NCBI GenBank assembly: GCA_963839955.1
Contig: CAWIXB010000001.1
Span: 3,672,248-3,736,247 of the forward strand
Length of the DNA: 64,000 nt
Reading direction: 5' to 3'
From: an uncultured Actinomycetota bacterium
GTDB taxonomy: Bacteria > Actinomycetota > Actinomycetes > JACCUZ01
Below the pieces are notes generated by a model. The model was not told where the DNA came from. It ran no database searches and saw only the letters and a list, made by a program, of their open reading frames with translations. Made by a program: the position numbers and the translations under genes. This document shows, one piece after another, positions 1 through 13,140 of this stretch. Every line of letters begins with the position of its first letter. Position 1 is the first letter of the stretch.

Positions 1-252
1 CGTGTCGGCGGTCGCCCCGTAGGCATAGGTCACGAAGAGCTGGCCTACCTTCTCCTCCAGTGTCATATGGCGCATCAGGTCCCTGACCTGCTTGTCGATC
101 CGCGGGCCGTCGGGTGGCCCGGAGGGACCGGCGGGACCCTGCGCGGCCCGCGCATCCACCGGGGCCCCGACCAGTCCGGTGACGGCGAGGGTCAGCACCG
201 CGAGCAGCGCGAGGAAGACACGAAGGGGAGTCTTGCTGACGATGGCCGGCAT
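1..252 (-). CDS. Glycoside hydrolase family 3 (NagZ-like beta-N-acetylhexosaminidase), N-terminal fragment running off the left edge
   Basis: Not in the ORF track because there is no stop in the window. Minus-strand ATG at 252 is preceded by GGAGG. Hand translation gives MPAIVSKTPLRVFLALLAVLTLAVTGLVGAPVDARA (signal peptide), then RHMTLEEKVGQLFVTYAYG, the EEKxGQLF N-terminal signature of GH3. Confidence 0.55.
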   Translation of the reverse strand, partial: MPAIVSKTPLRVFLALLAVLTLAVTGLVGAPVDARAAQGPAGPSGPPDGPRIDKQVRDLMRHMTLEEKVGQLFVTYAYGATADT

Positions 253-394
253 GGTGCCTCCGGTGACGGGAACGGCGGCGGGCAGGGCAAGGAGCAACGA
301 AGAAACGCTCCGGTTGGAAAGTTAGCTACATCACAGGTTCGGGGTCAATGCCCGTGTGTGTCCTAATTCGCACATTCTGTCCTGACCCGGCCAG

Positions 395-410
395 ATTGGT
401 ATAGTCCACC
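395..410. promoter_or_regulatory. dre-like (DasR/NagR-type GntR) operator candidate in the GH3 / SIS divergent promoter
   Basis: ATTGGTATAGTCCACC matches 12 of 16 positions of the Streptomyces dre consensus ACTGGTCTAGACCACT. It lies 32 nt upstream of the ATG at 442. Confidence 0.4.
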
Positions 411-441
411 GCGTGGCCCGCCGTCCGATGACCCTGCCGCG

Positions 442-1485
442 ATGACCACCGTCATGCGGGCCGAGATCGCCGAACAGGCGGCGGCGGTGGCCCGCACCCT
501 CGAGGTGCTGACCCCCCAGCGGCCAGCGCTGCGCGAGCTGTCCACCGCCCGACGGCAGGTGCTGTTCGTGGCCCGCGGCTCCTCCGACAACGCCGCCGTG
601 TACGGCCGCTATCTCGTCGAGGTGCACGCCAGCCGTCCGGCGGCGCTGGCCGCCCCCAGCGTCGCGACCCACTACGGCGCCGACCTCGACCTCTCCGACG
701 CCCTGGTCGTGAGCATCTCCCAGTCGGGTGAGACCGACGAGATCGTCGCGACCCAGGCCTGGGCCGGCGCGTGCGGGGCCGCCACGGTGGCAATCACCAA
801 CGGGGAGGGCAGCCGGCTCGCCGAGGGAGCCGACCACGCCCTCGTCACGCAGGCCGGACCCGAGCGCGCGGTCCCGGCCACCAAGACCTACACGACCCAG
901 TTGGCCGCGGTCACGGTGCTCGCGACGGCGCTGGGCGCCGACATGACGGCACTGGACGCCGACCTCCTGCGGGTGCCCGCCGAGATCGCCCGGCTCGTTC
1001 AACGCGGCGACGGCGTCGACGAGGCTGCGGCCGCGCTGGCGGAGACGGCCGAGATCATCGTCACCGGCCGCGGCCTGGTCTACGGCACGGCGCTCGAGAC
1101 GGCGCTCAAGCTCGAGGAGACGTGCCTGCGACCGGTGCGCGGCCTCTCCTACGCCGACCTGCGCCACGGCCCTATCGCCGTGGTCGACCACGACGTGACC
1201 GCCGTGCTGGTCGCCGCCGCCGACGGGCCCATGCTCGCCGCCATGACCGAGCTCGTCACGGACCTGCGCGCTCGCGGCGCCCGGACAGTGGTGGTCGGTG
1301 GCGACGCCGTCCTGCAGCGCACCTGCGACCTGCACGTGCCGGGGCCCGACCTGCCCGAGCTGCTGGCCCCGCTCGCCCTCGTCGTTCCGGCTCAGCTGGT
1401 CGTCGAGGCCCTGGCCCGCCGCCTCGGCCTCGATCCCGACGCACCTCGCGGGCTGTCAAAGGTCACCCAGACCGACCGGCAGTGA
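442..1485 (+). CDS. Double-SIS sugar-phosphate isomerase/deaminase (AgaS / GlmS-C-terminal / NagB-II like)
   Basis: 347 aa. Motifs seen: VARGSSDNAA, ISQSGETDEI, TKTYTTQL, LETALKLEET. This gives two SIS-type repeats. Confidence 0.8.
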   Translation: MTTVMRAEIAEQAAAVARTLEVLTPQRPALRELSTARRQVLFVARGSSDNAAVYGRYLVEVHASRPAALAAPSVATHYGADLDLSDALVVSISQSGETDEIVATQAWAGACGAATVAITNGEGSRLAEGADHALVTQAGPERAVPATKTYTTQLAAVTVLATALGADMTALDADLLRVPAEIARLVQRGDGVDEAAAALAETAEIIVTGRGLVYGTALETALKLEETCLRPVRGLSYADLRHGPIAVVDHDVTAVLVAAADGPMLAAMTELVTDLRARGARTVVVGGDAVLQRTCDLHVPGPDLPELLAPLALVVPAQLVVEALARRLGLDPDAPRGLSKVTQTDRQ

Positions 1486-2761
1486 GCAGCGCGACCGACC
1501 TGTCCAGCGCCCGCTCGCTCTCACCAGCCGCGACCGGCGAGATGAGCACCTCGTAGTCCTCCCGTCCGAACGCGTCTGATGTCGGCAGGTAGCCGCAGTA
1601 GCCGTTCGTGTAGCCGAGGACGACCGCACCGTCGACGGTGAGCGCGGCCCGGGCCGCCAGGGCGGAGTAGGGCTCGGCACCCAGTCCGAAGAGCAGCACG
1701 CCGCCGAGGTCGAGCGCGCTCACCACGCACGGCACGGCTGCGCCGTCGCCGGCGGCCGCCTCGGTCAGCGCCACGCCCTGCAATGCGGTGGCCGCCTCAC
1801 GGGCACCGACCACGTCGCCGCAACGTACGGCGTCGTCGTGGCGTGCCTGCGCGCGGGCGCGAGCGCCTTCGGCCTGCTCGCGGGACATGGGTGCGCGTGA
1901 GGCCAGTTCGACGACGTCGTGCGCACCGGCGAGAGGCCGCGCCGCGTCGAACCGGCGGACCGCGGTGGTGGCAAGCAGATCGCGCAGCTGCGGCGCGGCC
2001 ACTCCGGCCAGGCGGTCGACCTCCGCGGCCGTCTGCGCGCGCCGGTGCGGTCGCGTGCTCATGTCGCCGGCCACACCGGTCGCGACCACGGACCACGGCG
2101 CGGCTTCGCGCTCGGTCGCCAGTTCCGCGCGGAGCGCGCGCCGCACGCCACCGGTGAGGTCGGCCGAGACGGACAGGTTGGTCGCGGCGAGGACGGTGGG
2201 GTGCACGGCGAGGACGGTCACGGCGCCGAGCAGGCGGCCGTCATCGGGACGGCGGACGCCCAGGGCGGCGACCGGCGCGGTCAACGCCTTGGTCTCGCCC
2301 GCTCGCTGACCTCCGACGTGGGTCAGCTCTCCGATGTGCACGGTCAGATCCGCCGGCACGGCCGCCTCGAGGGCCCGCTCAGCCGCCGCCACGGCGGCGG
2401 CAGGCAGCACGTCGTCCCAGGGTGGCGGGGTGACCCCTCCACGGGGTGTGCAACCGGTGTCCGGGCCGGCGTGCGTGTGCGTCGCGGCCAGCCACACCAG
2501 GTCGGGCGTCGTCCCGGCCAGTTCCGCGACGCGGACTCGGGTGGAGTCGGCGACGTCGCGGTTGACCGACACGACGTCGGCGACGCACACCACCGCGGTC
2601 GACCCCTGGTGGGAGACAGAGACCGCCGACACCTCGAGCGCATCGAGCGTGCCCGTCGAGGGACTGCTGCGCTCGCCGTAGCCACCGAGCACGGTGCCGG
2701 GATCGACCTGCAGGTGGGCCACGCCGTGGCCGATCCGGGGGTACGACGATGTGTCAGCCAC
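1463..2761 (-). CDS. Neutral/alkaline ceramidase-like hydrolase family protein
   Basis: C-terminal LGYTNGYCGYLPT and N-terminal GGYGERS and THTHAGPD motifs. I place the start at GTG 2761 (VADTSSYPRIGHG), inside the overlap GTGGCTGA with the murQ stop. The ORF-track N-terminus (to 2899) is Arg/Pro shadow frame. Confidence 0.6.
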   Translation of the reverse strand: MADTSSYPRIGHGVAHLQVDPGTVLGGYGERSSPSTGTLDALEVSAVSVSHQGSTAVVCVADVVSVNRDVADSTRVRVAELAGTTPDLVWLAATHTHAGPDTGCTPRGGVTPPPWDDVLPAAAVAAAERALEAAVPADLTVHIGELTHVGGQRAGETKALTAPVAALGVRRPDDGRLLGAVTVLAVHPTVLAATNLSVSADLTGGVRRALRAELATEREAAPWSVVATGVAGDMSTRPHRRAQTAAEVDRLAGVAAPQLRDLLATTAVRRFDAARPLAGAHDVVELASRAPMSREQAEGARARAQARHDDAVRCGDVVGAREAATALQGVALTEAAAGDGAAVPCVVSALDLGGVLLFGLGAEPYSALAARAALTVDGAVVLGYTNGYCGYLPTSDAFGREDYEVLISPVAAGESERALDRSVALLTAGRSG

Positions 2762-3662
2762 CCACGGCCTCCCGTACGGTCGCACCTCCGGCGAGCCGCT
2801 CCCTCGCCACGGCCGCGTCGACTCCCGCGAGCAGCATGACAACGGCCACCTTGGTCTCGTCACCCGCTGCGGCCAGCGCCGCGGATGCCTCGTCCGCACT
2901 GACGCCGGTCGCCTCGACCACGATGCGCCGCGCCCGGTCGCGCAGCTTCACGTTGCCGGCGTGCAGGTCGACCATGAGGTTGCCGTACGTGCGACCGATC
3001 TTCACCATCGCCAGCGTCGACAGCGCGCTCAGCACGACCTTCTGCGCCGTGCCGGCCTTGAGCCGCGTGCTGCCGGCGAGCAGCTCGGCCCCGGTGGGTG
3101 TCTCGATCGCCACGTCTGCGACGTCCGAGATCAGTGCGTCGACGTTGTTCGCCACGGACACAGTGAACGCACCCCGCTCGCGGGCCGCGCGCAGGCCTTC
3201 GAGGACGTAGGGGGTGCGACCGCTCGCGGAGATGCCGACGACGGCGTCCGCGGCCCCCGCGCCGACCCGGTCCAGCGCCCGTACGGCGCTGCCGCCGTCG
3301 TCCTCGGCCCCTTCCTTGGCGCCGACGACCGCGTCCTCGCCGCCGGCGAGAAGTGCCACCACGCGCTCGGGCTCTACGCCGAAGGTCGGCGGGCACTCCG
3401 CCGCGTCCAGAGCAGCGAGGCGGCCCGGTGTGCCGGCACCAAGGTAGAGAAGCCGGCCCCCGCGACGCAGCCGGTCGGCGACACCGTCGACCGCGGCGGC
3501 GAGCGCCGGTGCAGCCGACTCGAGGGCATGGTCGACGGCGTGCTGCTCGGCGAGCATCAGCGTCACGAGGTCCGCCGTCGAGCGCTGGTCGAGGTCGGCG
3601 AGCTCGGGTCGGCTGCCCTCGGTGGCCAGCGTCGCGAGGTGCTCGGTCGCCTCACTCACCAC
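2754..3662 (-). CDS. murQ: N-acetylmuramic acid 6-phosphate etherase
   Basis: 302 aa single-SIS protein. Motifs seen: LLYLGAGTPGRLAALDAAECPPTF, GISASGRTPYV, GSTRLKAGTAQK. Confidence 0.9.
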   Translation of the reverse strand: MVSEATEHLATLATEGSRPELADLDQRSTADLVTLMLAEQHAVDHALESAAPALAAAVDGVADRLRRGGRLLYLGAGTPGRLAALDAAECPPTFGVEPERVVALLAGGEDAVVGAKEGAEDDGGSAVRALDRVGAGAADAVVGISASGRTPYVLEGLRAARERGAFTVSVANNVDALISDVADVAIETPTGAELLAGSTRLKAGTAQKVVLSALSTLAMVKIGRTYGNLMVDLHAGNVKLRDRARRIVVEATGVSADEASAALAAAGDETKVAVVMLLAGVDAAVARERLAGGATVREAVGG

Positions 3663-3807
3663 GGCCTCCCGGTGTCTCTGTCTGCGGGGACATCGTCGTA
3701 CAACCTTGCACCGCGCTCGCGGCTGACCGGCGCTGCACGCGGTTAGGCTCTGTCAGGGCTTGACGACGGGCAAACCCCGCCCGCCGCACGGAGGAGGCAG
3801 CCGCGCG

Positions 3808-4566
3808 ATGACGGGACCGGCGCCGCGCCGCGCGGCACTGCCGAGGAAGCTCGCCGGGCCCAAGGGCGCGGCCCTGCAGGAGATTCTCGAGTCCTACGTC
3901 GCCGAGCTCGAACCCGGCTCCCCGCTCCCGAGCGAACGCGAGCTCGCCGAGCACTTCGGGGTCGCCCGCATGACGGTGCGTGCCCAGATCGAACGCATGG
4001 CCCACCGGCGCCTGGTCTACCGCCAACAGGGACGCGGCACCTTCGTCGCCGAACGCCGCCTCGCGCACACCGAACACCTGACGTCGTTCACCGAGGACAT
4101 GCGCAAACGCGGCCTGGTGGCCGGCGCACAGCTGCTCGATGTCAGCACGGTGCGTGCGGGGCAGGCGCTGGCGGTGAGCCTGGAGGTGGCGGCCGGCTGC
4201 ATGGTCACCCGGGTACGACGAGTGCGCACCGCCGACGGCGTCCCGATGGCCGTCGAGGAGACGCATCTCCCTGCTGACCGCTTCCCGGGTCTCGCCGACC
4301 ACGACTTCATCGAGAACAGCCTCTACGAGCTGCTGGCCCAGCACTACGGCGTGCTCGTCGCCGAAGCAGCGCAGCGCGTCACCGTCGTGACGCTGCAGCA
4401 GGGTGAGGCCGACCTGCTCGAGACCCCCGAAGGCGAGCCGGCGTTCCAGATCGAACGCGTCACCCGCGACGGCGACGGCACCGTCGTGGAGTTCGCCTGC
4501 TCGGTCTACCGCGGTGACCGCTACGAGGTTCTGATGCACGCGCGACGTGACGCGCCCTCCACCTGA
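3808..4566 (+). CDS. GntR/HutC-family transcriptional regulator (DasR/NagR-like, UTRA C-domain)
   Basis: HTH segment LPSERELAEHFGVARMTVRAQIERM. ATG 3808 lies 10 nt after GGAGGAGG. The ORF-track TTG 3760 is an alternative start. Confidence 0.85.
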   Translation: MTGPAPRRAALPRKLAGPKGAALQEILESYVAELEPGSPLPSERELAEHFGVARMTVRAQIERMAHRRLVYRQQGRGTFVAERRLAHTEHLTSFTEDMRKRGLVAGAQLLDVSTVRAGQALAVSLEVAAGCMVTRVRRVRTADGVPMAVEETHLPADRFPGLADHDFIENSLYELLAQHYGVLVAEAAQRVTVVTLQQGEADLLETPEGEPAFQIERVTRDGDGTVVEFACSVYRGDRYEVLMHARRDAPST

Positions 4567-4571
4567 CGGGG

Positions 4572-4991
4572 TCAGCTGCCCGACCCCGCGTCACGCAGCC
4601 GGCTGCGCACGTCGATGACACCGGCCGGGCCTGCGGCAGCCGCGGTGGCGGCCATGTCGGCTGCGCTCGTGTCGACGCTCGAGAGCACTTCCAGGGCCAT
4701 GGGCAGGTTGAGGCCGGTCACCAGTTCGACGCCGTCCCGGCGCAGCAGCTCGGTGGCGACCGCGTTCGCTGGACTGCCGCCGAACAGGTCGGCGAGCACG
4801 AGCAGCTCTCCGTCCTCTCCCGCGTGCCCCTGCACCGCCTCGACCACGGCACCGGGGTCCTGTTCGGGGGTCATGCCGACCGCGTGGACGTCCTCCTGCG
4901 GACCCATGATCATCTCGACGGCGTCGAGCACGCCGCGCGCGAGCGCGGCGTGCCCGACGAACACCACAGTTGCCCGTGTCGACTCAGGCAC
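4572..4991 (-). CDS. PTS mannose/fructose/sorbose-family EIIA
   Basis: VVFVGHAALARG (phospho-His context) and LADLFGGSP motifs. 139 aa. Confidence 0.85.
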   Translation of the reverse strand: MPESTRATVVFVGHAALARGVLDAVEMIMGPQEDVHAVGMTPEQDPGAVVEAVQGHAGEDGELLVLADLFGGSPANAVATELLRRDGVELVTGLNLPMALEVLSSVDTSAADMAATAAAAGPAGVIDVRSRLRDAGSGS

Positions 4992-5000
4992 GTGCGGTCC

Positions 5001-5903
5001 TCACTCGCCTTCCTTGGGCAGCTCGGGCACGAACCAGTCGAGCCAACCCAGGGTCAGCCCGAGGATGAACACACCGAGGATCGCCCACAGCGGGTTGAGG
5101 TTGAACTTCTTCAGCGCCCAGTAGATGACTCCCGTCAGAATGACCGGCAGCATGTAGGGCAGCACCGTGTCGAGCTGCGTCTGCAGCGGGACTTCCTGCT
5201 GCACTTCCTCGCCCCGGACCGTGACCGTCTGGCTGTAGGTCAGTGACGTGCTGATCTTGACGATCGATGGGATGAAACCACCGAGCACGACGAGACCGAG
5301 CACGGTCGCGGCTTCGCTGACACGCTCCAGGGCACCACCGGCGATCGATGAGATGAGGTTGCGGCCCTGGTTGTAGCCGAAGAAGAACTGCCAGCGGCGT
5401 ACCAGGAAGTACGGGACCAGCACCATGAACGCGGCGAAGATCGGCCCGATCGCCTTGCCCTCGAGGGCCCAGGCCGAGCCGATCGTGAAGATGATGCTGT
5501 TGTACAGCGCGAACGTCAGCGTGTCGCCGACGCCGGCCATCGGACCCATGAGCCCGACCTTCACGCCCTCGGCGGAGCCCTTGGCGTGCCTCTCCTCCAT
5601 GGCGATTGCCGAGCCGATGATGAGCGGCGCGCCGATGATGGGGCTGGTGTTGAAGAACGACAGATGCCGGGTCAGCCCTTCGCGGTACTCCGCCTCGTCC
5701 GGGTAGATCTTCCGCAGGCAAGGCTGCATCGCGTAGGCGAACCCCAGCGCCTGCATGCGCTCGTAGTTCCACGAGATCTGGAACGACGTGAAGAACCGCC
5801 AGAACGACTTGTTGAGGTCGGACTTGGTGAGCACCGACGGAGGGATCTGCTCGTCTGGTCCGTCCGGACCGCCGGTCGTGGTGTGCGTCGCAGTGTCAGA
5901 CAT
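5001..5903 (-). CDS. PTS mannose-family EIID
   Basis: FWRFFTSFQISWNYERMQALGFAYAM signature. The start overlaps the IIC stop by 8 nt. Confidence 0.9.
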   Translation of the reverse strand: MSDTATHTTTGGPDGPDEQIPPSVLTKSDLNKSFWRFFTSFQISWNYERMQALGFAYAMQPCLRKIYPDEAEYREGLTRHLSFFNTSPIIGAPLIIGSAIAMEERHAKGSAEGVKVGLMGPMAGVGDTLTFALYNSIIFTIGSAWALEGKAIGPIFAAFMVLVPYFLVRRWQFFFGYNQGRNLISSIAGGALERVSEAATVLGLVVLGGFIPSIVKISTSLTYSQTVTVRGEEVQQEVPLQTQLDTVLPYMLPVILTGVIYWALKKFNLNPLWAILGVFILGLTLGWLDWFVPELPKEGE

Positions 5904-6654
5904 TGACGGCCTCCCTCGGCTCGCGGTACTTCAACGTCATGAAGATCGCCGCAAGGGCTACACCGAAGATGGCGATGCCGACGAGTGGCACCTGCAAGTA
6001 GGCGAACAAAACGAATCCGATCAGAAGCATGTACCAGTACCTGCGCACCGGCATGATCTTGAGCAGCATCGCGAAGCCGACGGCCGGCAGCATGGCGCCC
6101 ACGAGCGTCATGCCTCGGACGAAGCCTTCCGGGATAGCGTCCTGGAAGTTCTGCACCGTCTCCGCGGTTGCCAGCGCCGCGAGGAATGTCGGGATGGCCC
6201 GGGTGAGGCCCCATGGTATGAACGCCGTCCAGTGCGCCCACGACATTCGTCTGTCGTCACCGGCGGCCGCGTAGCCGTCAGCGCGATGTATCCAGAAGGT
6301 CGGCAGGAAACGACCGATCGGGTCGAGGCTCGCGAGCAGGATGGCGGCAGGGATGCCGACCGTGATGCCGAGCGCGAGCTGCCCGCTGAACGCTCCACTC
6401 GCGTCGGCGGCCAGCGCGGTCCCGACGATCGCACCGGTCTGGTAGTCGGGCGTCGTCGCGCCGCCGTAGGTATAGATGCCGAGAGCGGTCAGCTCGAGCG
6501 TGGCGCCGACCGCCATGCCCAGCGTCGGGTCGCCGACGATGAGACCGGCGACGCTGCCGGCGATCAATGGTCGGCCGGCGTAGAAGAGGGTGGGGCCGAG
6601 CACGTCGTAGATGCATAACGTGCCCCAGATGGCAAGGATCAAGGCTTCAAACAA
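5896..6654 (-). CDS. PTS mannose-family EIIC
   Basis: 252 aa polytopic protein. GATLELTALGIYTYGGATTPD is a IIC-Man type motif. Confidence 0.9.
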   Translation of the reverse strand: MFEALILAIWGTLCIYDVLGPTLFYAGRPLIAGSVAGLIVGDPTLGMAVGATLELTALGIYTYGGATTPDYQTGAIVGTALAADASGAFSGQLALGITVGIPAAILLASLDPIGRFLPTFWIHRADGYAAAGDDRRMSWAHWTAFIPWGLTRAIPTFLAALATAETVQNFQDAIPEGFVRGMTLVGAMLPAVGFAMLLKIMPVRRYWYMLLIGFVLFAYLQVPLVGIAIFGVALAAIFMTLKYREPREAVNV

Positions 6655-6749
6655 GGGGACACCTCACTCGGGTGGGCGTTTCCGGTCGGATGGGTCGGCT
6701 TGTCGCGGGCGCCGTTGCCCGCTCAGGGGCCCCGCGTCATTGCCCCACG

Positions 6750-7997
6750 TCAAGGGACGGACTCAGGCGCTGCGTGCGGATCGGGAACCGGGACGGGCCG
6801 GCCCTCGGCGTACGTCGTGTGCAGGCTGCCGTCGGCGCGCAGCCGCACGAGGTCGGCGCGCAGCCCGGGTGCGAGCGTGCCGACCTCGTCGGTGCCGAGC
6901 AGCCTCGCCGGCACGGAGGTCGCCATCGCGACGGCGGTGGCCACGTCGAGACCGAGCAGGCTGACGGCGTTCGCCACCGCGTCGGCCATCGTCAGGGTGC
7001 TGCCCGCGAGGATGTCGGTGCCCGAGACGACCACCCGGTTGGCCGTGACGTCGACGATCGAGCCACCGAGCTCGTAGGTCCCGTCGGGCATCCGTGCGGC
7101 GGTCATCGCGTCGGTGATGAGGCAGACCCGGTGGCTGCCGGCGGCCCGGACGAGCACTCGGGCCGCGAGCGGGTCGACGTGGATGCCGTCGACGATGAGC
7201 TCGCACACCAGCCTGTCGTCGTCCATGGCGACGCCGACGCCACCCGGAGTGCGGTGGTGCAGCGGGCGCATGCCGTTGAACGTGTGCGTGACGCTGGTCG
7301 CACCCAACTCGACCGCAGCCCGCATGGTTTCGGCGTCGGTGTCGGTGTGACCCAGGGAGACGATGAGACCGAGGCCGCGCGCCCGCCTGACGAGGTCGAG
7401 GCCTCCGGGCAGCTCCGGGGCCAGGGTGATGGACCGCACGTGACCGCGCCCAGCACTGACCAGGCGCGCCAGCTCGTCGGGGTCCGGGGCACGCAGCTGT
7501 GCCTCGTCGTGCGCACCGCGGCGCCGGCCGGACAGGAACGGTCCCTCGAGGTGGATGCCGAGTAGCCGCGCCGCAGCGGTCTGCTGCGCTGCCCCGCCTG
7601 AGTCGCTGTCGTCGGTTTCGTCGATGTCGTCAGCGAGTCGCCGGACCGCGTCGAGCAAAGTGGCGGCGTCGGTCGAGACGGTCGAGGCAAGCATCGACGT
7701 CGTGCCGTGGCCTGCGTGCAGCTCGCGGACGCGCCGGCGGGACGCCGGATCGGGGCTCATGAACTCGCCGCCACCGCCACCGTGCACGTGTACGTCGACG
7801 AAGCCCGGTGCCAGCCAGTCGCCTGCACAGTCGACCAGCTCGGTCGCGTCGAGGATCGGCGTGCCTTGACCAAGCGCAGTGATCCGGGCGTCGGTGACGG
7901 CGACCCAGCCGTCGGTCAACTGCTGTCCGCGGGCGAGCAACCGTGCCCCGGCCAACACAAGGTCGGCAGGGCGATCCGGCGGCATTGGAGCAGTCAC
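6750..7997 (-). CDS. nagA: N-acetylglucosamine-6-phosphate (or GalNAc-6-P) deacetylase
   Basis: Motifs seen: FVDVHVHGGGG, LGIHLEGPFLS, SLGHTD, THTFNGM. GTG 7997 overlaps the upstream stop as GTGA. Confidence 0.9.
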   Translation of the reverse strand: MTAPMPPDRPADLVLAGARLLARGQQLTDGWVAVTDARITALGQGTPILDATELVDCAGDWLAPGFVDVHVHGGGGGEFMSPDPASRRRVRELHAGHGTTSMLASTVSTDAATLLDAVRRLADDIDETDDSDSGGAAQQTAAARLLGIHLEGPFLSGRRRGAHDEAQLRAPDPDELARLVSAGRGHVRSITLAPELPGGLDLVRRARGLGLIVSLGHTDTDAETMRAAVELGATSVTHTFNGMRPLHHRTPGGVGVAMDDDRLVCELIVDGIHVDPLAARVLVRAAGSHRVCLITDAMTAARMPDGTYELGGSIVDVTANRVVVSGTDILAGSTLTMADAVANAVSLLGLDVATAVAMATSVPARLLGTDEVGTLAPGLRADLVRLRADGSLHTTYAEGRPVPVPDPHAAPESVP

Positions 7998-8734
7998 GTC
8001 GCGGGCTGCGGATCAACGTTGTAGCTGACGAGCACTCCCGGGTCACGACCGTTGCGCGCCAGCCTGAGTGCTGCCTCGCACACGATCGACTGCAGCAGCA
8101 CGGAGCCGGCGACGGTGGAGACAGGCCCGACCTTCTCGGACCGGTCGGGCAGCGACACGGTTGCGTCACCGAGCGGCGCCGTGTTGTCGAGCACGACGTC
8201 GGCGACCTCCATGAGGCGGCGGCCGCTGGGTGCGCGCGAGTCGACCGACCCGCTGTGCTCTCGCGACGTGACGGCGATGACCGTCGCGCCGCGCGCCTTC
8301 GACTCCTCGGCGAACTCGACGGGCACTGCGTTGCGCCCGGAGCTGCTGGCCACCACGACGACGTCGCCCTCGCCGACGCCCGCGTTGGCGACGAGGATCC
8401 GCGCGTAGCCGGTCAGCTTCTCCAGCGCCGACGACTTCGCTGCGCCCTCGTGCAGCATCAGCGACGGCTCCAGGACCGCCTCGATGCCACGCAGTCCCCC
8501 AGCCCGGGTGTAGAGCTCTTCGGCCAGCAGGTGGGAATGACCCGTGCCGAACGCGAAGACGCGCCGGCCGTTGCCAAGCGCATCGGCGACGTGTCCCGCG
8601 GCTCGTTCGATCTCGTCGACCTGGGCCGCCACGCGCGCGATCGCCCGCCCGGCGGCGGCGAGGTAGGCGCGGGCGCCCGAGCGCGCGTCGGCGTCCGGGC
8701 TCACGTCGTCAGCACTGGGGCCGGCTGGGCTCAC
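7994..8734 (-). CDS. Single-SIS domain protein (UPF0309-like sugar isomerase domain)
   Basis: Motifs seen: RRVFAFGTGHSHLLAEE, VVASSSGRNAVPVE, ATVIAVTS. I place the start at GTG 8734, overlapping the IIB stop as GTGA. The upstream part of the ORF-track entry is shadow frame. Confidence 0.75.
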   Translation of the reverse strand: MSPAGPSADDVSPDADARSGARAYLAAAGRAIARVAAQVDEIERAAGHVADALGNGRRVFAFGTGHSHLLAEELYTRAGGLRGIEAVLEPSLMLHEGAAKSSALEKLTGYARILVANAGVGEGDVVVVASSSGRNAVPVEFAEESKARGATVIAVTSREHSGSVDSRAPSGRRLMEVADVVLDNTAPLGDATVSLPDRSEKVGPVSTVAGSVLLQSIVCEAALRLARNGRDPGVLVSYNVDPQPAT

Positions 8735-9222
8735 AGCTTCTTGTCCTGCAGGACCTTGAGAAAGTCGTTTCTCCGGTCGTTGGGCATCATCCGCTGCTCG
8801 AGGCCGAAGCCCTTGGCCGCGATGGCCCGGAACGTCTCGGCGTCCTCCGACGTGACCGCGATGGAGCGGCTCACCATCTTGAACTTCGTGCCGGGTCGCG
8901 GCGCCTGGTTGCCGACGTTGATCTCCTTCGGCTCCAGACCGCCCTCGACGAGCGCGAGGGCGTCGGAGGGCAGCTTGGCGATGATCATGATCTTCTCGCG
9001 GTCGCCCTTGTCGCCCAGGCAGTAGGCCAGGGTGTCCGCCACGCTGAGAACCGACGTCTTCACGCCGCGGGCGGCCTGGGGCAGGATCATCCGCTGCATC
9101 TCGTCGGCCGCCACGTCGTCGTTGGTGACGATGAGGTGGTCGGCGCCCAGCGCACCCACCCACGAGATCGTGACCTGTCCGTGGATCAACCGATTGTCGA
9201 TGCGCATGTGCGCGACGGGCAT
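8731..9222 (-). CDS. PTS mannose-family EIIB
   Basis: MPVAHMRIDNRLIHGQVTISW (phospho-His motif). ATG at 9222. The ORF-track N-terminal extension is implausible. Confidence 0.9.
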   Translation of the reverse strand: MPVAHMRIDNRLIHGQVTISWVGALGADHLIVTNDDVAADEMQRMILPQAARGVKTSVLSVADTLAYCLGDKGDREKIMIIAKLPSDALALVEGGLEPKEINVGNQAPRPGTKFKMVSRSIAVTSEDAETFRAIAAKGFGLEQRMMPNDRRNDFLKVLQDKKL

Positions 9223-9232
9223 CAGCGCTCCA

Positions 9233-9248
9233 AGTGGACTAGACCAGT
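9233..9248. promoter_or_regulatory. dre-like (DasR/NagR-type) operator immediately upstream of the PTS operon
   Basis: AGTGGACTAGACCAGT matches 15 of 16 positions of the palindromic dre consensus AGTGGTCTAGACCAGT. It sits 11 nt upstream of the IIB start. Confidence 0.6.
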
Positions 9249-9393
9249 CTGAACTCGTGCACCTTAGGACCAGTCGCCACCCCGGGACAAGAGGTACATG
9301 CGTTCGCATCTCGCCCGGCGGCCCATACTGGTCGCGTCCGTGCTGACGGCGTACCGGCCGATACCCCTCGCGGGTGCGCGTCTGCGGGGACGA

Positions 9394-9478
9394 GGAGGGT
9401 TCGCATAGTGGCCGAGTGCATGCGCCTTGAAAGCGCACGACGGGAGACCGTCCGTGGGTTCAAATCCCACACCCTCCG
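9394..9478 (+). tRNA. tRNA-Ser (anticodon TGA)
   Basis: Folded by hand. Acceptor GGAGGGT/ACCCTCC, D-stem GCA/TGC, anticodon stem TGCGC/GCGCA with loop CTTGAAA. Long variable arm GACGG-GAGA-CCGTC, T-arm GTGGG-TTCAAAT-CCCAC. CCA is not encoded. Confidence 0.9.
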
Positions 9479-9523
9479 CCCGGACCGGGACTGAGCGACC
9501 TGGGTCGCCGGCGAACCGGTGGG

Positions 9524-10489
9524 TCAGTTCAGCTCGGCGTGCAGGACGACGGCCGGCTGCCAGGCGTTGGACCCCAGCAACGACTCGGACGCAATGGCGG
9601 TCATCCAGTCGAAGATCGTCAGCTCCGCGTCGTCGAGCATCCGCTGCACCACGGCCGCCTCGAGCAGACGACCGGGCGCGTAGCGCGCCCACTGCGTGAC
9701 GAAGCGGCCTTCGAGAAGCCGGTAGGTGACACCGTCGCGCGAGCCCAGGGTGAAGGCGACGGTGGCGTCGTTGAGCTGCATCGTCGCCAGCTCGAGCTGG
9801 CCGGCGGCGGCCATGGAGCGCATCCGCAGGTTCCATGTGTAGCGCCGAGCCTCGTCGTCGAGCTGCGCGACGCGCCCATGGGAGTGGTCACGCTCGCGGT
9901 GGCACCGTTCCAGGGCAGGAAGGGCAGACGCGATCAGGCGGGGGTCGTCGGTGAAGGCGACCGTCGCGTCGAGGTCATCACGGTGCAGCCGGTTCCGGGC
10001 CTTCCGCAGGGTCCGGTTCGCTCCGTGCGACAAGTAGGACTCGACGTCGCCCGCGCCGTTTCGCTCGATGATAGGGATGGGCGCCACGGACGTCGACGCA
10101 CCGCCGAGGCCAGCAGCGAAGGAAGCCACGATCTGGCCAGGGATCAGCGGGCCGAGGTGCAGAGCCTTCAGGCGTCGCTCAGTCGCAGCGGCCATGACCG
10201 CGCGACCGAGGCCGGCCGCGATGATGGGCTCGAGTGCGAGCACCGCGCCGCGCTGGACGGTGTCGGTGCCGAGCAGCTGCGTCACTCCGTGCGGGTCGTC
10301 GACGAAGACGACACTGGCGGAGAGCTGCCCGCGCCCGTCACGGGCGACGACCGCCCACGGCTCGGCGTCGACAAGCGAGTCGAGGGTGGCGCGCAACCAC
10401 GGCTCGCGGGCGGTGAGAGGAGCGCCGCAACGAGCGGCCAGCGTGTCGAACTCCTCGAGCATGCCGCGCAGGGACTCGACGCCGGACAC
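9524..10489 (-). CDS. GNAT-superfamily acetyltransferase (CelD/BioF2/FemAB-like domain)
   Basis: 321 aa with clean composition. The family call comes from the C-terminal YRLLEGRF..YAPG..L pattern, so it is only moderately supported. GTG 10489 is the earliest possible start because an in-frame TGA lies just upstream. Confidence 0.6.
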   Translation of the reverse strand: MSGVESLRGMLEEFDTLAARCGAPLTAREPWLRATLDSLVDAEPWAVVARDGRGQLSASVVFVDDPHGVTQLLGTDTVQRGAVLALEPIIAAGLGRAVMAAATERRLKALHLGPLIPGQIVASFAAGLGGASTSVAPIPIIERNGAGDVESYLSHGANRTLRKARNRLHRDDLDATVAFTDDPRLIASALPALERCHRERDHSHGRVAQLDDEARRYTWNLRMRSMAAAGQLELATMQLNDATVAFTLGSRDGVTYRLLEGRFVTQWARYAPGRLLEAAVVQRMLDDAELTIFDWMTAIASESLLGSNAWQPAVVLHAELN

Positions 10490-12893
10490 GACGCCCGCCG
10501 ACTGGCGGACGGTGCCTTGCGCGAGCGGCAGATGCTGTCGTGCTCAGCACCGAGGGCCGACCGGGGCGTTGTGGCGACCTGCTGAGAGGTCTTCCGCCTC
10601 GGTCCGTGCGTCGATCCAGCGCTCCAGGGCCGACGGGCTCCAGGGCCGGGGAGTAGTAGAAGCCCTGCACCTTGTCGCACTGGTAGGCGGCGAGCTGCCG
10701 GGCAGCGCCCTCGTTCTCGACCCCTTCGGCGACCATGGTCATGCCGAGGGCGTGCGCCAGGTCGATGGTGGAGCGCACGATCGCCGCGGCGCGCGGGTCA
10801 TCGGCCATCGGCTTGACGAACGATCGGTCCAGCTTCAGCTCGTCGATCGGAAGCTCTCGCAGGTACGCCAGGCTGGAGTACCCGGTCCCGAAGTCGTCGA
10901 CCGAGACCCGGATGCCGGCGTGGCGGAGCTCCGCGAGGATGTCGCGGGCGCGTTCGCGGTCGCCCATGAGGAAGTCTTCGGTGATCTCCAGCTCGAGCGC
11001 GTCCGACGCGAGCCGGCGCACGGAGAGCAGCCCGCGCACCCGAGCGGGGAGCTCGGCGTCCACGAGGGACGACGCCGACAGGTTCACCGCCACATTCAGG
11101 TGCCGTCCCGCGGCGCGCCAGACACGCACCTGGTCGAGGGACACCTCGAGGACGGCGTCGGTGAGGTCGCGCATCAGGCCGGCGTCCTCGACCAGCGGCA
11201 GGAAGTCGCCGGGCAGCAGCAGGCCCCTCGTGGGGTGCTCCCACCGTACGAGCGCCTCGACGCCGACGACGGCGCCGCTTCTCGCGTCGAGCTTCGGCTG
11301 GTAGTGCACGACGAGGCTGCGGTCGACGATCGCCGACCGGAGGTCTTCGAGGTCACGCAGACGCTGCTCGTCATGCCCGGCGTCGAGGTCGTCGCTGTAC
11401 ACGCGGTGGCCGACCTTGGTCGCCTTCGCCTCGTACATGGCGCGGTCGGCACGTCGCAGCAGCGTCGAGACGTCGCCGCCCTGGCTGGGGTAGAGCGCGA
11501 TGCCGATGCTTGCGGTGAGCCGCACGGTCACGCCGTCCAGGCTGAAGGGTGCCTCCAGAGCGTCGCGGAGCCCGCGAGCGGCCGAGATGCCCGCTGCCTC
11601 GTCGGCGCCGTCGAGCAGGGTGGCGAACTCGTCACCCCCGAGGCGGATCAACCGGTGTTCGTGTTCGCTCGACTCCAGCGAGGCGAGCGAGGCGAGCAAG
11701 CGTGAGGTGACATGGCGCAGCAGCGTGTCGCCTGCCTGGTGGCCGAGGCTGTCGTTGACCTCCTTGAACCGGTCGAGGTCGAGCAGCAACAACGCTCCGG
11801 GCGCGCCGTCCGGACCGAGACGGTGCGAGACCTCCTCGTAGAACGCGCGCCGGTTGCCTAGCCCGGTCAGCTCGTCGGTGAAGGCGAGGGTGTGGCTGTC
11901 GGCGAGGGAGGCGACCTCTCTGAAGGTGACGATGAGGCGGCCCAGCGCAGCGACCACAGTCGCGGCACAGAGCAGGATCGCCGCGAAGTTCAGCTGGTTG
12001 CTGTGGTCGTAGATCAGCGTCGCCAGCGCGGCGAGGGTGGCGACGACAGGGAAGCCGACCCGCACCCAGCTCGGCAGCGCCGTGTTGGCGGAGGCCATCG
12101 CCCGCCGGCCGGGGGCGAACGCGATGACCAGGGTCGCGACGACCCAGATCCCGTCGTTGAGGCCACCAGGCTGATAGGTCCCGTTGTTGGCCGAGAACAG
12201 GTACACGCCGTCGGCAAGGGAGAACATCGCCATACCGGCGGCGACGAACCAGAGCCCGACCGGAGGTCGCCAGTTGAACAGCGCCAGGACCGAGGTGACG
12301 ACGAGCAGCACGAGCACGTCGAGCACCACGTGTGCCAGCGTCGTGACGACGGCAGCCTTGCTGCCTCCGGTCTCGGCGACGATCGGGTTGAAGAGGGCGG
12401 CGGCGACACCGGCGACGGCGAGCCCGCCGACGAGACCGTCGAGCCACAGGCTCAACGGCACGTCGTCGACGGTGCCACGCACGAACAGCACCAGCGCGAT
12501 GAGCGCGCAGGGGTAGAACGACAGCCACAGCCCGTCGGCGATCGACGGGAAGGGCTCGGGGTCCTGGGTACGGACGAAGATCGTCCAGAACACGTTCCCC
12601 GACCCGTAGATCGCGAGCCCGACGCCGAGGAAGAGGTAGCTGGCCCGGTAGGTCGTGGCGCCGCGGGCGCGAACGAAGCAGACCACGGCGCTGAGCTCGT
12701 ACGCGATGTTGTTCAGGAACCCGTCGAGCAGGAGGTTGTAGCCCGGGTTCGGGCGGACGCCCGGGATGGTCGAGACCAGGAAGACGCCGAAGACGAGAGC
12801 GGTCGCTATGTAGACGCCGGTGGAGAGGCGCATTCGAGGGCGGCGCGGCGACAGTTGAGGCAGGACAGCCCTCATCGTGGGAACGCCAGTCAC
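10338..12893 (-). CDS. Membrane-anchored diguanylate cyclase/phosphodiesterase (GGDEF + EAL), C-terminus apparently frameshifted
   Basis: Multi-TM N-terminus. GGDEF domain motifs DLDRFKEVNDSLGHQAGD and RLGGDEFA. EAL domain motifs EALVRW, ELEITE, DDFGTGYSSL, KLD and QGFYYS. The last roughly 100 codons are an Arg-rich tail overlapping the next gene (see findings). Alternative starts are ATG 12875 and the later MRLSTGV. Confidence 0.8.
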   Translation of the reverse strand: MTGVPTMRAVLPQLSPRRPRMRLSTGVYIATALVFGVFLVSTIPGVRPNPGYNLLLDGFLNNIAYELSAVVCFVRARGATTYRASYLFLGVGLAIYGSGNVFWTIFVRTQDPEPFPSIADGLWLSFYPCALIALVLFVRGTVDDVPLSLWLDGLVGGLAVAGVAAALFNPIVAETGGSKAAVVTTLAHVVLDVLVLLVVTSVLALFNWRPPVGLWFVAAGMAMFSLADGVYLFSANNGTYQPGGLNDGIWVVATLVIAFAPGRRAMASANTALPSWVRVGFPVVATLAALATLIYDHSNQLNFAAILLCAATVVAALGRLIVTFREVASLADSHTLAFTDELTGLGNRRAFYEEVSHRLGPDGAPGALLLLDLDRFKEVNDSLGHQAGDTLLRHVTSRLLASLASLESSEHEHRLIRLGGDEFATLLDGADEAAGISAARGLRDALEAPFSLDGVTVRLTASIGIALYPSQGGDVSTLLRRADRAMYEAKATKVGHRVYSDDLDAGHDEQRLRDLEDLRSAIVDRSLVVHYQPKLDARSGAVVGVEALVRWEHPTRGLLLPGDFLPLVEDAGLMRDLTDAVLEVSLDQVRVWRAAGRHLNVAVNLSASSLVDAELPARVRGLLSVRRLASDALELEITEDFLMGDRERARDILAELRHAGIRVSVDDFGTGYSSLAYLRELPIDELKLDRSFVKPMADDPRAAAIVRSTIDLAHALGMTMVAEGVENEGAARQLAAYQCDKVQGFYYSPALEPVGPGALDRRTDRGGRPLSRSPQRPGRPSVLSTTASAARARHRPPVGGRRVRRRVPARHARGVRHAGRSLRRSSHRPRAVVARHPRLACRRRAVGGRRP

Positions 12894-13140
12894 GCTGCAC
12901 CTCCCTGTTTTCGCCTAGACCCTGAATCTCGGATGTCTGGGCACTGACCTTGAGAGTCGGTCGGCGCTCAGGGCAGCGCCGCGCGGCCACCGGGGCGTCG
13001 GCCGAATCGGACCGAGGCAGTTGGGGCGGTTTGTCCGACCTCACCCACCGGACGGGAGGCCAACGCCAACCGAACCAACACCGCCTAGCCGCCCCCGAGC
13101 CCCCCCGAGCCCCCGAGCCCCCAAGCCCCACCCCTCGCAG

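Follow-up and report, generated by a model that had tools for sequence, protein, structure and literature searches.

The locus described here occupies the left end of a 64,000-nucleotide stretch of DNA (the window; G000:C1:3672248-3736247, where C1 is contig 1 of the host genome) from an uncultured soil actinomycete, whose 3.86 Mb genome of 71% GC is assembled in two contigs. Its central element is a predicted phosphotransferase system (PTS) of the mannose (Man) family, encoded together with candidate genes for the catabolism of N-acetylmuramic acid (MurNAc) as well as N-acetylglucosamine (GlcNAc). Real open reading frames were chosen by the GC content of third codon positions (GC3) and then checked against Pfam and NCBIfam. 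A second set of gene calls was available from the identical public contig, and the left flank of the window was scanned with Pfam and NCBIfam as well. The PTS operon lies on the minus strand in the order IIB-Man (8731-9222), a single-SIS protein of the UPF0309 (BH3325/NagS) family (7994-8734; SIS_2, PRK02947), the GlcNAc-6-phosphate deacetylase NagA (6750-7997 from a GTG start or 6750-7985 from an ATG start), IIC (5896-6654), IID (5001-5903) and IIA-Man (4572-4991). A GntR/HutC regulator of the DasR/NagR type with a UTRA effector domain, called by both Pfam and NCBIfam (3808-4566, plus strand), is convergent with the IIA gene and divergent from murQ, which encodes a MurNAc-6-phosphate etherase (2754-3659, minus strand). 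Next to murQ are the gene of a 432-residue ceramidase-fold zinc amidase, or 'mini-ceramidase' (1463-2761, minus strand; PF04734 and fold search), and, convergent with it, that of a double-SIS protein recognized by NagB-II and GlmS C-terminal domain models (442-1485, plus strand). At the window's edge is the 5′ end of a gene for an exported, NagZ-like beta-N-acetylhexosaminidase of family GH3 (1-252, minus strand), with a signal peptide in its N-terminus MPAIVSKTPLRVFLALLAVLTLAVTGLVGAPVDARA. The preliminary description of this DNA had placed the four PTS polypeptides, the co-oriented NagA-type deacetylase and single-SIS protein, and the flanking murQ, GntR/HutC and double-SIS genes at these positions, and all of them were recovered by the Pfam and NCBIfam calls. 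Of the secreted GH3 protein that it also listed, only the first 84 codons fall inside the window, and the ceramidase-fold gene was left out of its list.

All four PTS polypeptides score above their Pfam cut-offs (IIA, PF03610, 73 bits; IIB, PF03830, 138 bits; IIC, PF03609, 218 bits; IID, PF03613, 287 bits), and the combination of IIA-Man, IIB-Man, IIC and the family-specific IID identifies a predicted member of the PTS mannose-fructose-sorbose family (TC 4.A.6). Both phosphohistidine contexts reported earlier are indeed present, with His14 of IIA within the motif VFVGHAAL and the histidine of IIB within RIDNRLIHGQV; we take these to be the equivalents of E. coli ManX His10 and His15/175. It had been suggested that the rest of the genome be checked for ptsI and ptsH, and adjacent EI and HPr genes do occur in a housekeeping region at about 1.53 Mb (G000:C1:1527635-1529589), HPr scoring 85.6 bits and EI 370 bits against a cut-off of 341.7. 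No EIIC of the Glc/Fru/Lac superfamily (PF02378) was matched genome-wide at E<=1e-2 (0.01), hence there is no MurP. The only other PTS permease in the genome is a second, very divergent Man-family set at about 2.68 Mb (G000:C1:2680617-2684897; about 30% identity), arranged in the order IIC-IID-IIB, with the gene of a SIS protein and then a tagatose-1,6-bisphosphate-aldolase-like (LacD-like) gene behind them, and without an IIA of its own. Since the window IIA is the genome's sole IIA-Man (PF03610) gene, the two Man-type permeases probably share it, in the manner of E. coli AgaF.

Separate IIA, IIB, IIC and IID polypeptides also characterize the E. coli ManXYZ and aga (AgaVWEF/AgaBCD) systems, and the aga locus, like the locus described here, encodes a NagA/AgaA-family deacetylase as well as a SIS deaminase/isomerase. 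The window system differs from them in that all of its subunits fall below the Aga and Man equivalog cut-offs and in the attached MurQ and peptidoglycan hydrolases. It also differs from aga in lacking a tagatose-6-phosphate kinase and a tagatose-bisphosphate aldolase, neither of which is found in window positions 1-13000 or in the left flank; the aldolase-like gene of this organism is at the Man-PTS of C1:2.68 Mb. The classical Aga pathway, which the preliminary description had already set aside on the same grounds, is therefore ruled out for this locus.

The genes are tightly packed. The IIB and SIS genes share a GTGA overlap, the IIC and IID genes overlap by 8 nt (ATGTCTGA), and the murQ stop overlaps the GTG start of the amidase gene (GTGGCTGA). 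The junction between the SIS gene and nagA is either a further GTGA overlap or, if translation begins at an in-frame ATG 8 nt past the stop, no overlap at all, and the gene caller took the ATG; of the three coupling overlaps originally proposed for the PTS operon, two thus stand as described and the third holds only with the GTG start. The sole sizeable gap within the operon is the 95 nt between nagA and IIC (6655-6749), which contains a GC-rich hairpin (GCGGGC-AACGGC-GCCCGC) that matches no Rfam family and is not called as a terminator. Apart from a tRNA gene, nothing was returned by the scans for promoters, terminators and Rfam families.

A 16-nt palindrome (AGTGGACTAGACCAGT, 9233-9248) located 10 nt upstream of the IIB ATG differs by one mismatch from the consensus of dre, the operator of Streptomyces DasR. 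The regulator encoded in the locus scores 56 bits for GntR and 141 bits for UTRA, and a HutC-subfamily regulator with a UTRA domain, together with a dre-like palindrome, has the features of a predicted DasR/NagR-type regulon. A second dre-like operator (ATTGGTATAGTCCACC, 395-410) lies in the divergent promoter region of the GH3 and nagB-II genes. Only two sites in the whole genome have at most one mismatch to dre, and the 13-mer TGGTNTAGTCCAC occurs exactly twice in 3.86 Mb, once before IIB and once 33 bp before the nagB-II ATG, so that in this genome the PTS operon is linked to the promoters of the deaminase and hydrolase genes. About 30 related loci, belonging to Nocardioidaceae, Pseudonocardiaceae, Lentzea and Actinosynnema, have the core TGGTCTAG(T/C)CCA at a distance of 25-136 bp upstream of IIB or IIC. 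This conservation ties the PTS clade to a regulator of the DasR/NagR type and hence to amino-sugar signalling. In the Pseudonocardiaceae loci the operator stands before IIC instead of IIB. The arrangement resembles those of Streptomyces DasR and Bacillus NagR in having the same type of HutC regulator with UTRA and a near-dre 16-nt palindrome at an amino-sugar uptake promoter, but the transporter that would be controlled is of the Man family rather than NagE2 or NagP, and the predicted regulon appears to be local, with two specific sites that are both in the locus. A broad DasR regulon was considered and rejected, as matches with up to three mismatches amount to noise (23, versus 34 in a reversed-sequence control) and the other sites with up to two mismatches flank unrelated genes. 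No MurR-type box shared between the murQ/gntR and GH3/nagB-II regions was found.

The amino-sugar enzymes of the locus are each single-copy in the genome, including the single-SIS protein and the amidase. NagA exceeds the cut-off of TIGR00221 (266 versus 226 bits) and MurQ that of TIGR00274 (312 versus 302 bits; PRK05441, 357 bits). The double-SIS protein reaches 205 bits with NagB_SO3506, for which the cut-off is 430, and 207 bits with the GlmS isomerase domain model. No classical NagB, NanE or BadF-type kinase (MurK) scored above cut-off anywhere in the genome, and the double-SIS protein, the genome's only candidate, is likely to be the glucosamine-6-phosphate (GlcN-6-P) deaminase/isomerase. 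Because NagA, MurQ and the NagB-II-like protein each occur once, the view that this is the organism's only amino-sugar catabolic locus is supported.

An earlier scheme leading from MurQ through NagA to a SIS deaminase finds its genes in the locus, but for the role of deaminase the double-SIS protein is a better candidate than the single-SIS protein. The single-SIS protein scores 260 bits with PRK02947 and matches the structures 3cvj (E 1e-47) and 9eol (E 7e-34). The latter is that of NagS (SCO4393), the GlcNAc-6-phosphate dehydratase of Streptomycetaceae (PMC12680351). Both proteins belong to UPF0309, and in an alignment to 9eol the essential or important NagS residues H53, R64, E94, D179, S91 and N228 are conserved in the window protein. 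True NagS orthologues, however, are restricted to Streptomycetaceae, lie beside dmdR1 and share at least about 58% identity (PMC12680351), whereas the window protein is 39% identical to NagS, is closer to BH3325 (3cvj) and has IIB and nagA as its neighbors instead of dmdR1. The identity and the wrong synteny together rule out a true NagS, and by its sequence the protein is a UPF0309/NagS-like candidate enzyme rather than a demonstrated deaminase.

The 432-residue protein encoded next to murQ scores 31.0 bits with PF04734, just under the gathering cut-off of 32.1, and a sequence search against the PDB gave no match. Its AlphaFold2 model (pLDDT 95.3, pTM 0.94) has as its sole significant Foldseek matches 2zws, 2zxc and 4wgk (E 1e-24 to 1e-23, TMq 0.72-0.74), which are neutral ceramidases of P. 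aeruginosa and human; as modeled, the protein carries the neutral-ceramidase catalytic-domain fold. In an alignment of 26 homologues, H95-x-H97, R153, H187, E363, Y384/Y391 and Y403 are invariant, and many Arg and Ser residues are conserved besides; the invariant set presumably represents the Zn-site and catalytic residues of PaCD and ASAH2. The predicted amidase has the fold and probably also the HxH/Arg/His/Glu/Tyr/Tyr pattern of neutral ceramidases (2zws/2zxc; ASAH2, 4wgk; PF04734), but at about 430 residues it is much shorter than those enzymes (630-670 residues), is only 15-16% identical to them, and lacks both their C-terminal Ig-like domain and a signal peptide; its start is coupled to murQ.

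A profile search with this amidase returned 8,142 clusters (50% identity) at E<=1e-30, and about 140 of the 150 best clusters are roughly 360-480 residues long, the others being longer proteins or fragments. In loci of the PTS clade the amidase gene is beside the PTS in 26 of 34 cases, and as three of the other eight loci end at that point, the informative proportion is 26 of about 31. Loci of the Chloroflexota type have in addition a pair of UPF0309 SIS genes along with NagA, a HAD protein, HPr and EI. The amidase gene also occurs in loci without a PTS of this clade. One of these, in a Firmicutes metagenome-assembled genome (MAG), has it flanked by IIB on one side and a pair of UPF0309 genes on the other, and includes NagA, HPr, EI and NagB; in Amycolatopsis and Phytohabitans loci it comes after an ABC transporter and either NanE or a kinase-NanE fusion, in some cases together with UPF0309. 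Since the amidase is found always in amino-sugar-phosphate gene contexts, a ceramide substrate is unlikely, and the most parsimonious interpretation is that it works in the cytoplasm as a Zn amidase on the phosphate of an N-acyl amino sugar. A search of the available literature for a ceramidase-fold enzyme in amino-sugar metabolism found no description of one.

The GH3 gene starts at window position 252 on the minus strand, extends beyond the window's left edge and is the first in a string (G000:C1:3661629-3672499) that encodes GH3, an EEP-fold protein, NamZ, a beta-lactamase-fold protein, a MurR/RpiR regulator and an M36 protease, of which the enzymes have signal-peptide-like N-termini. GH3 matches PF00933 (305 bits) and PF01915, and its best NCBIfam model is NagZ (175 bits against a cut-off of 207). 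NamZ, also with a signal-peptide-like N-terminus, has both Pfam domains (NamZ_N, 258 bits; NamZ_C, 199 bits). The best NCBIfam model of the beta-lactamase-fold protein is PBP4B (190 bits, cut-off 385), while the regulator combines HTH_6 and SIS domains and reaches 210 bits with the best MurR/RpiR models (cut-off 378). The comparison to be made is with the B. subtilis operon murQ-murR-murP-amiE-nagZ-namZ (PMC8054146). The two share MurQ and exported NamZ and probably also a MurR/RpiR regulator, an exported GH3 of the NagZ type and an exported beta-lactamase-fold protein (PBP4B/AmiE-like), and would share the logic that exo-hydrolases free monosaccharides, a PTS imports them and MurQ processes the product. 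In contrast to B. subtilis, MurP, a Glc-family EIIBC, is missing here, and a four-subunit Man-family PTS stands in the transporter's place; NagA and NagB-II are also part of the locus, a GntR/HutC regulator and dre-like operators are present on top of MurR, and the ceramidase-fold amidase, the UPF0309 SIS protein, the EEP-fold protein and the M36 protease are extras. The preliminary description had proposed salvage of peptidoglycan amino sugars, and this is strengthened because NamZ, GH3, the PBP4B/AmiE-like protein and MurR adjoin the window and because of the shared operator.

Two further members of the string may be mentioned. The exported EEP-fold (Exo_endo_phos) protein (G000:C1:3669660-3670826, minus strand), between GH3 and NamZ, has a Tat/lipoprotein-like N-terminus, GGAGNQGAA repeats and, as its sole NCBIfam match, a weak one to VanJ; its role might be that of a phosphodiesterase, releasing MurNAc from the linkages of wall polymers. 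Downstream of MurR, an exported M36 fungalysin-type metallopeptidase of 1,320 residues with a DUF11 domain (G000:C1:3661629-3665591) may attack the peptide moiety of wall fragments.

Systems of this type had been thought uncommon in Actinomycetota, and a survey of IID (PF03613) agrees: it is present in 2 of 39 genomes of the host GTDB family, in 7 of 400 other genomes of the class (4 of 174 genera) and in 18 of 400 other genomes of the phylum, all of the last outside the host class and in three small-genome families. True EI occurs in 11 of the 39 family genomes and a Glc/Fru-type EIIC in 10; a genome of the same genus has neither, and both Man-PTS carriers of the family are without a Glc/Fru-type EIIC. 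In soil metagenomes the PTS clade is represented by 961 proteins at E<=1e-20, and among the matches listed 119 other proteins are 59-76% identical. In a tree of IIC and IID, subclades of the PTS clade match locus architectures, and the window groups with a MAG of the same family and with Nocardioidaceae at 97% support; the branch between the window clade and the genome's other Man-PTS measures about 7 substitutions per site. In the loci of Nocardioidaceae and of the same-family MAG the PTS stays in the company of NagA, GntR and MurQ, joined in some cases by NagB-II. MAGs labelled 'Candidatus Melainabacteria' have PTS-amidase loci (L031, L032, L038 and L041) with near-identical sequences that are nested in the Pseudonocardiaceae clade, and these taxonomic labels are probably wrong. 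The comparison of GC and codon usage with the genome that had been called for gives ordinary values (percentiles 21-84 for GC3 and codon usage of the locus genes), and the low total GC of IIB, IIC and IID stems from codon positions 1 and 2. Recent horizontal transfer, which the patchy distribution might suggest, is therefore rejected for want of a compositional signal, and with GC3 and codon usage native to the genome the patchiness is put down to gains and losses of old date and not to a recent island.

We consider it likely that these genes form a single catabolic or salvage locus for peptidoglycan amino sugars, in which a Man-family PTS replaces the Glc-family transporters MurP/NagP and has MurNAc and/or GlcNAc as its cargo. 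MurP and NagP hold this role in B. subtilis and E. coli, and to our knowledge all characterised PTS importers of MurNAc and GlcNAc are of the Glc family; a search of the available literature for a Man-family PTS in a MurNAc cluster found no description. In the pathway we propose, the exported NagZ-like GH3, NamZ and the PBP4B/AmiE-like amidase would cut wall fragments to GlcNAc, MurNAc and peptides, and EI, HPr, IIA and IIB would relay phosphate to the sugar during its import by IIC/IID. The product would be an N-acyl-hexosamine 6-phosphate, namely MurNAc-6-phosphate, GlcNAc-6-phosphate or both, from which MurQ would take off the lactyl ether and NagA the acetyl group before the double-SIS NagB-II-like protein yields fructose-6-phosphate and ammonium. 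The GntR/HutC repressor would act via the two dre-like operators that are unique in the genome; a MurR/RpiR regulator is encoded in addition. The ceramidase-fold amidase, coupled to murQ, most likely deacylates an N-acyl amino-sugar phosphate that is poorly handled by NagA, and together with the UPF0309 SIS protein encoded between IIB and nagA it would constitute an additional branch. What the computation shows is the gene content, the fold and catalytic motifs, the operators, and the distribution and synteny of the genes; from these we infer the substrate, each enzymatic step and the regulation.

Several observations weigh against this interpretation. IIC and IID score under every NCBIfam equivalog or subfamily cut-off (IID: TIGR00828, 210 against 293; AgaD, 168 against 400; AgaE, 122 against 500), so that homology gives no substrate. 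When transcript evidence was sought, the runs containing the locus sequence proved to be soil-metagenome DNA only. For the SIS branch, the NagS homologues at 26-36% identity that were assayed are reported to be inactive as NagS (PMC12680351). It is rather unlikely, in our estimation, that the PTS imports GlcNAc or glucosamine (GlcN) only, like E. coli ManXYZ or streptococcal ManLMN, but there are arguments for such a role. The nagA gene is within the PTS operon, but neither murQ nor the hydrolase operon is, each being a transcription unit of its own; a search for dre at murQ found no site; the operator belongs to the DasR/NagR type, known to have GlcNAc-6-phosphate and GlcN-6-P as effectors; and the genome encodes AnmK, which could supply MurNAc-6-phosphate to MurQ without a PTS by acting on anhydro-MurNAc from the organism's own wall turnover, if another carrier does not bring it in. 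Such a division of labor has to contend with NamZ and the AmiE-like protein, which would release MurNAc outside the cell where the locus encodes no other candidate importer, with the absence of a MurP-type EIIC and of a BadF-type MurK above cut-off, and with the presence of MurQ alongside this PTS subclade in at least five loci.

The amidase raises a different doubt. It is the most constant partner of the PTS clade, ahead of MurQ and NagA, so the cargo may not be plain MurNAc or GlcNAc. In Pseudonocardiaceae and Lentzea the loci consist of IIB-IIC-IID-IIA-amidase only, with or without GntR, and with nothing else nearby the ancestral cargo may have been a different N-acyl sugar. The PTS and the amidase, with or without the UPF0309 SIS protein, might accordingly be a self-contained module for another N-acylated amino sugar (N-acetylmannosamine, an N-glycolyl or other N-acyl hexosamine, or an amide-linked glycoconjugate) that was placed beside the Mur/Nag genes, whose products take over downstream. 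Such a module would account for the PTS-amidase core of the informative loci and for the company the amidase keeps, where the PTS is absent, with an ABC transporter and kinase-NanE; the amidase family is large and uncharacterised, and the occurrence of both NagA and the amidase in the window suggests that they are not redundant. On the other hand, signalling of the GlcNAc type is indicated throughout the clade by the conserved dre-like operator, the subclade of the window has MurQ and NagA adjacent, with or without NagB-II, and murQ and the amidase gene are translationally coupled here, and we regard the module as a doubtful alternative. Both of these alternatives overlap with peptidoglycan amino-sugar salvage as we propose it, the cargo being the sole difference. 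A decaying or purely regulatory PTS remnant without transport is very improbable. The same-genus genome without any PTS and the patchy PTS content of the family would suit it, but the four genes are intact, translationally coupled and native in GC3 and codon usage, both phosphohistidine motifs are kept, EI and HPr are intact, the operator is conserved, and the close homologues in metagenomes number 961.

Directly upstream of the PTS operon is a tRNA-Ser(TGA) gene (9394-9480, plus strand), which lies between it and a gene for an Acetyltransf_6 (FemAB-like) protein. A tRNA-linked island was considered and rejected, the locus being on the 5′ side of the tRNA gene and other island features not being seen. 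Farther along, at 9524-12893 on the minus strand, the longest open reading frames of the Acetyltransf_6 gene and of a GGDEF-EAL gene have about 150 nt in common; in the public annotation the two are called with lengths of 341 and 782 residues.

As far as can be read from sequence, the locus would be a cluster for the catabolism of peptidoglycan sugars whose novelty lies in its non-orthologous transporter and in two further candidate enzymes. A broader proposal, which we put forward tentatively as possible but short of probable, is that the Man-type PTS, the mini-ceramidase amidase as a non-orthologous N-deacylase and the UPF0309 SIS protein as a dehydratase or deaminase constitute an undescribed cross-phylum pathway for amino-sugar phosphates, serving here as the entry for cell-wall MurNAc/GlcNAc or an N-acyl variant. 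A possible chemistry would be NagS-like dehydration followed by deacylation to a 2-keto-3-deoxy sugar phosphate. If this proposal is true, the transporter would be the first of the Man family of the MurNAc type. Peptidoglycan is a large soil pool of carbon and nitrogen, and with this locus the import of its sugars by a Man-family PTS can be put to a concrete test; PTS of this type are abundant in soil metagenomes and almost absent from cultured model actinomycetes. Two large families, the short ceramidase-fold amidases (more than 8,000 clusters at 50% identity) and the UPF0309 SIS proteins outside Streptomycetaceae, are put in a defined, co-regulated metabolic context that narrows their candidate substrates to a few. 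Experiments are within reach, as there are carriers in culture, among them Lentzea and Actinosynnema.

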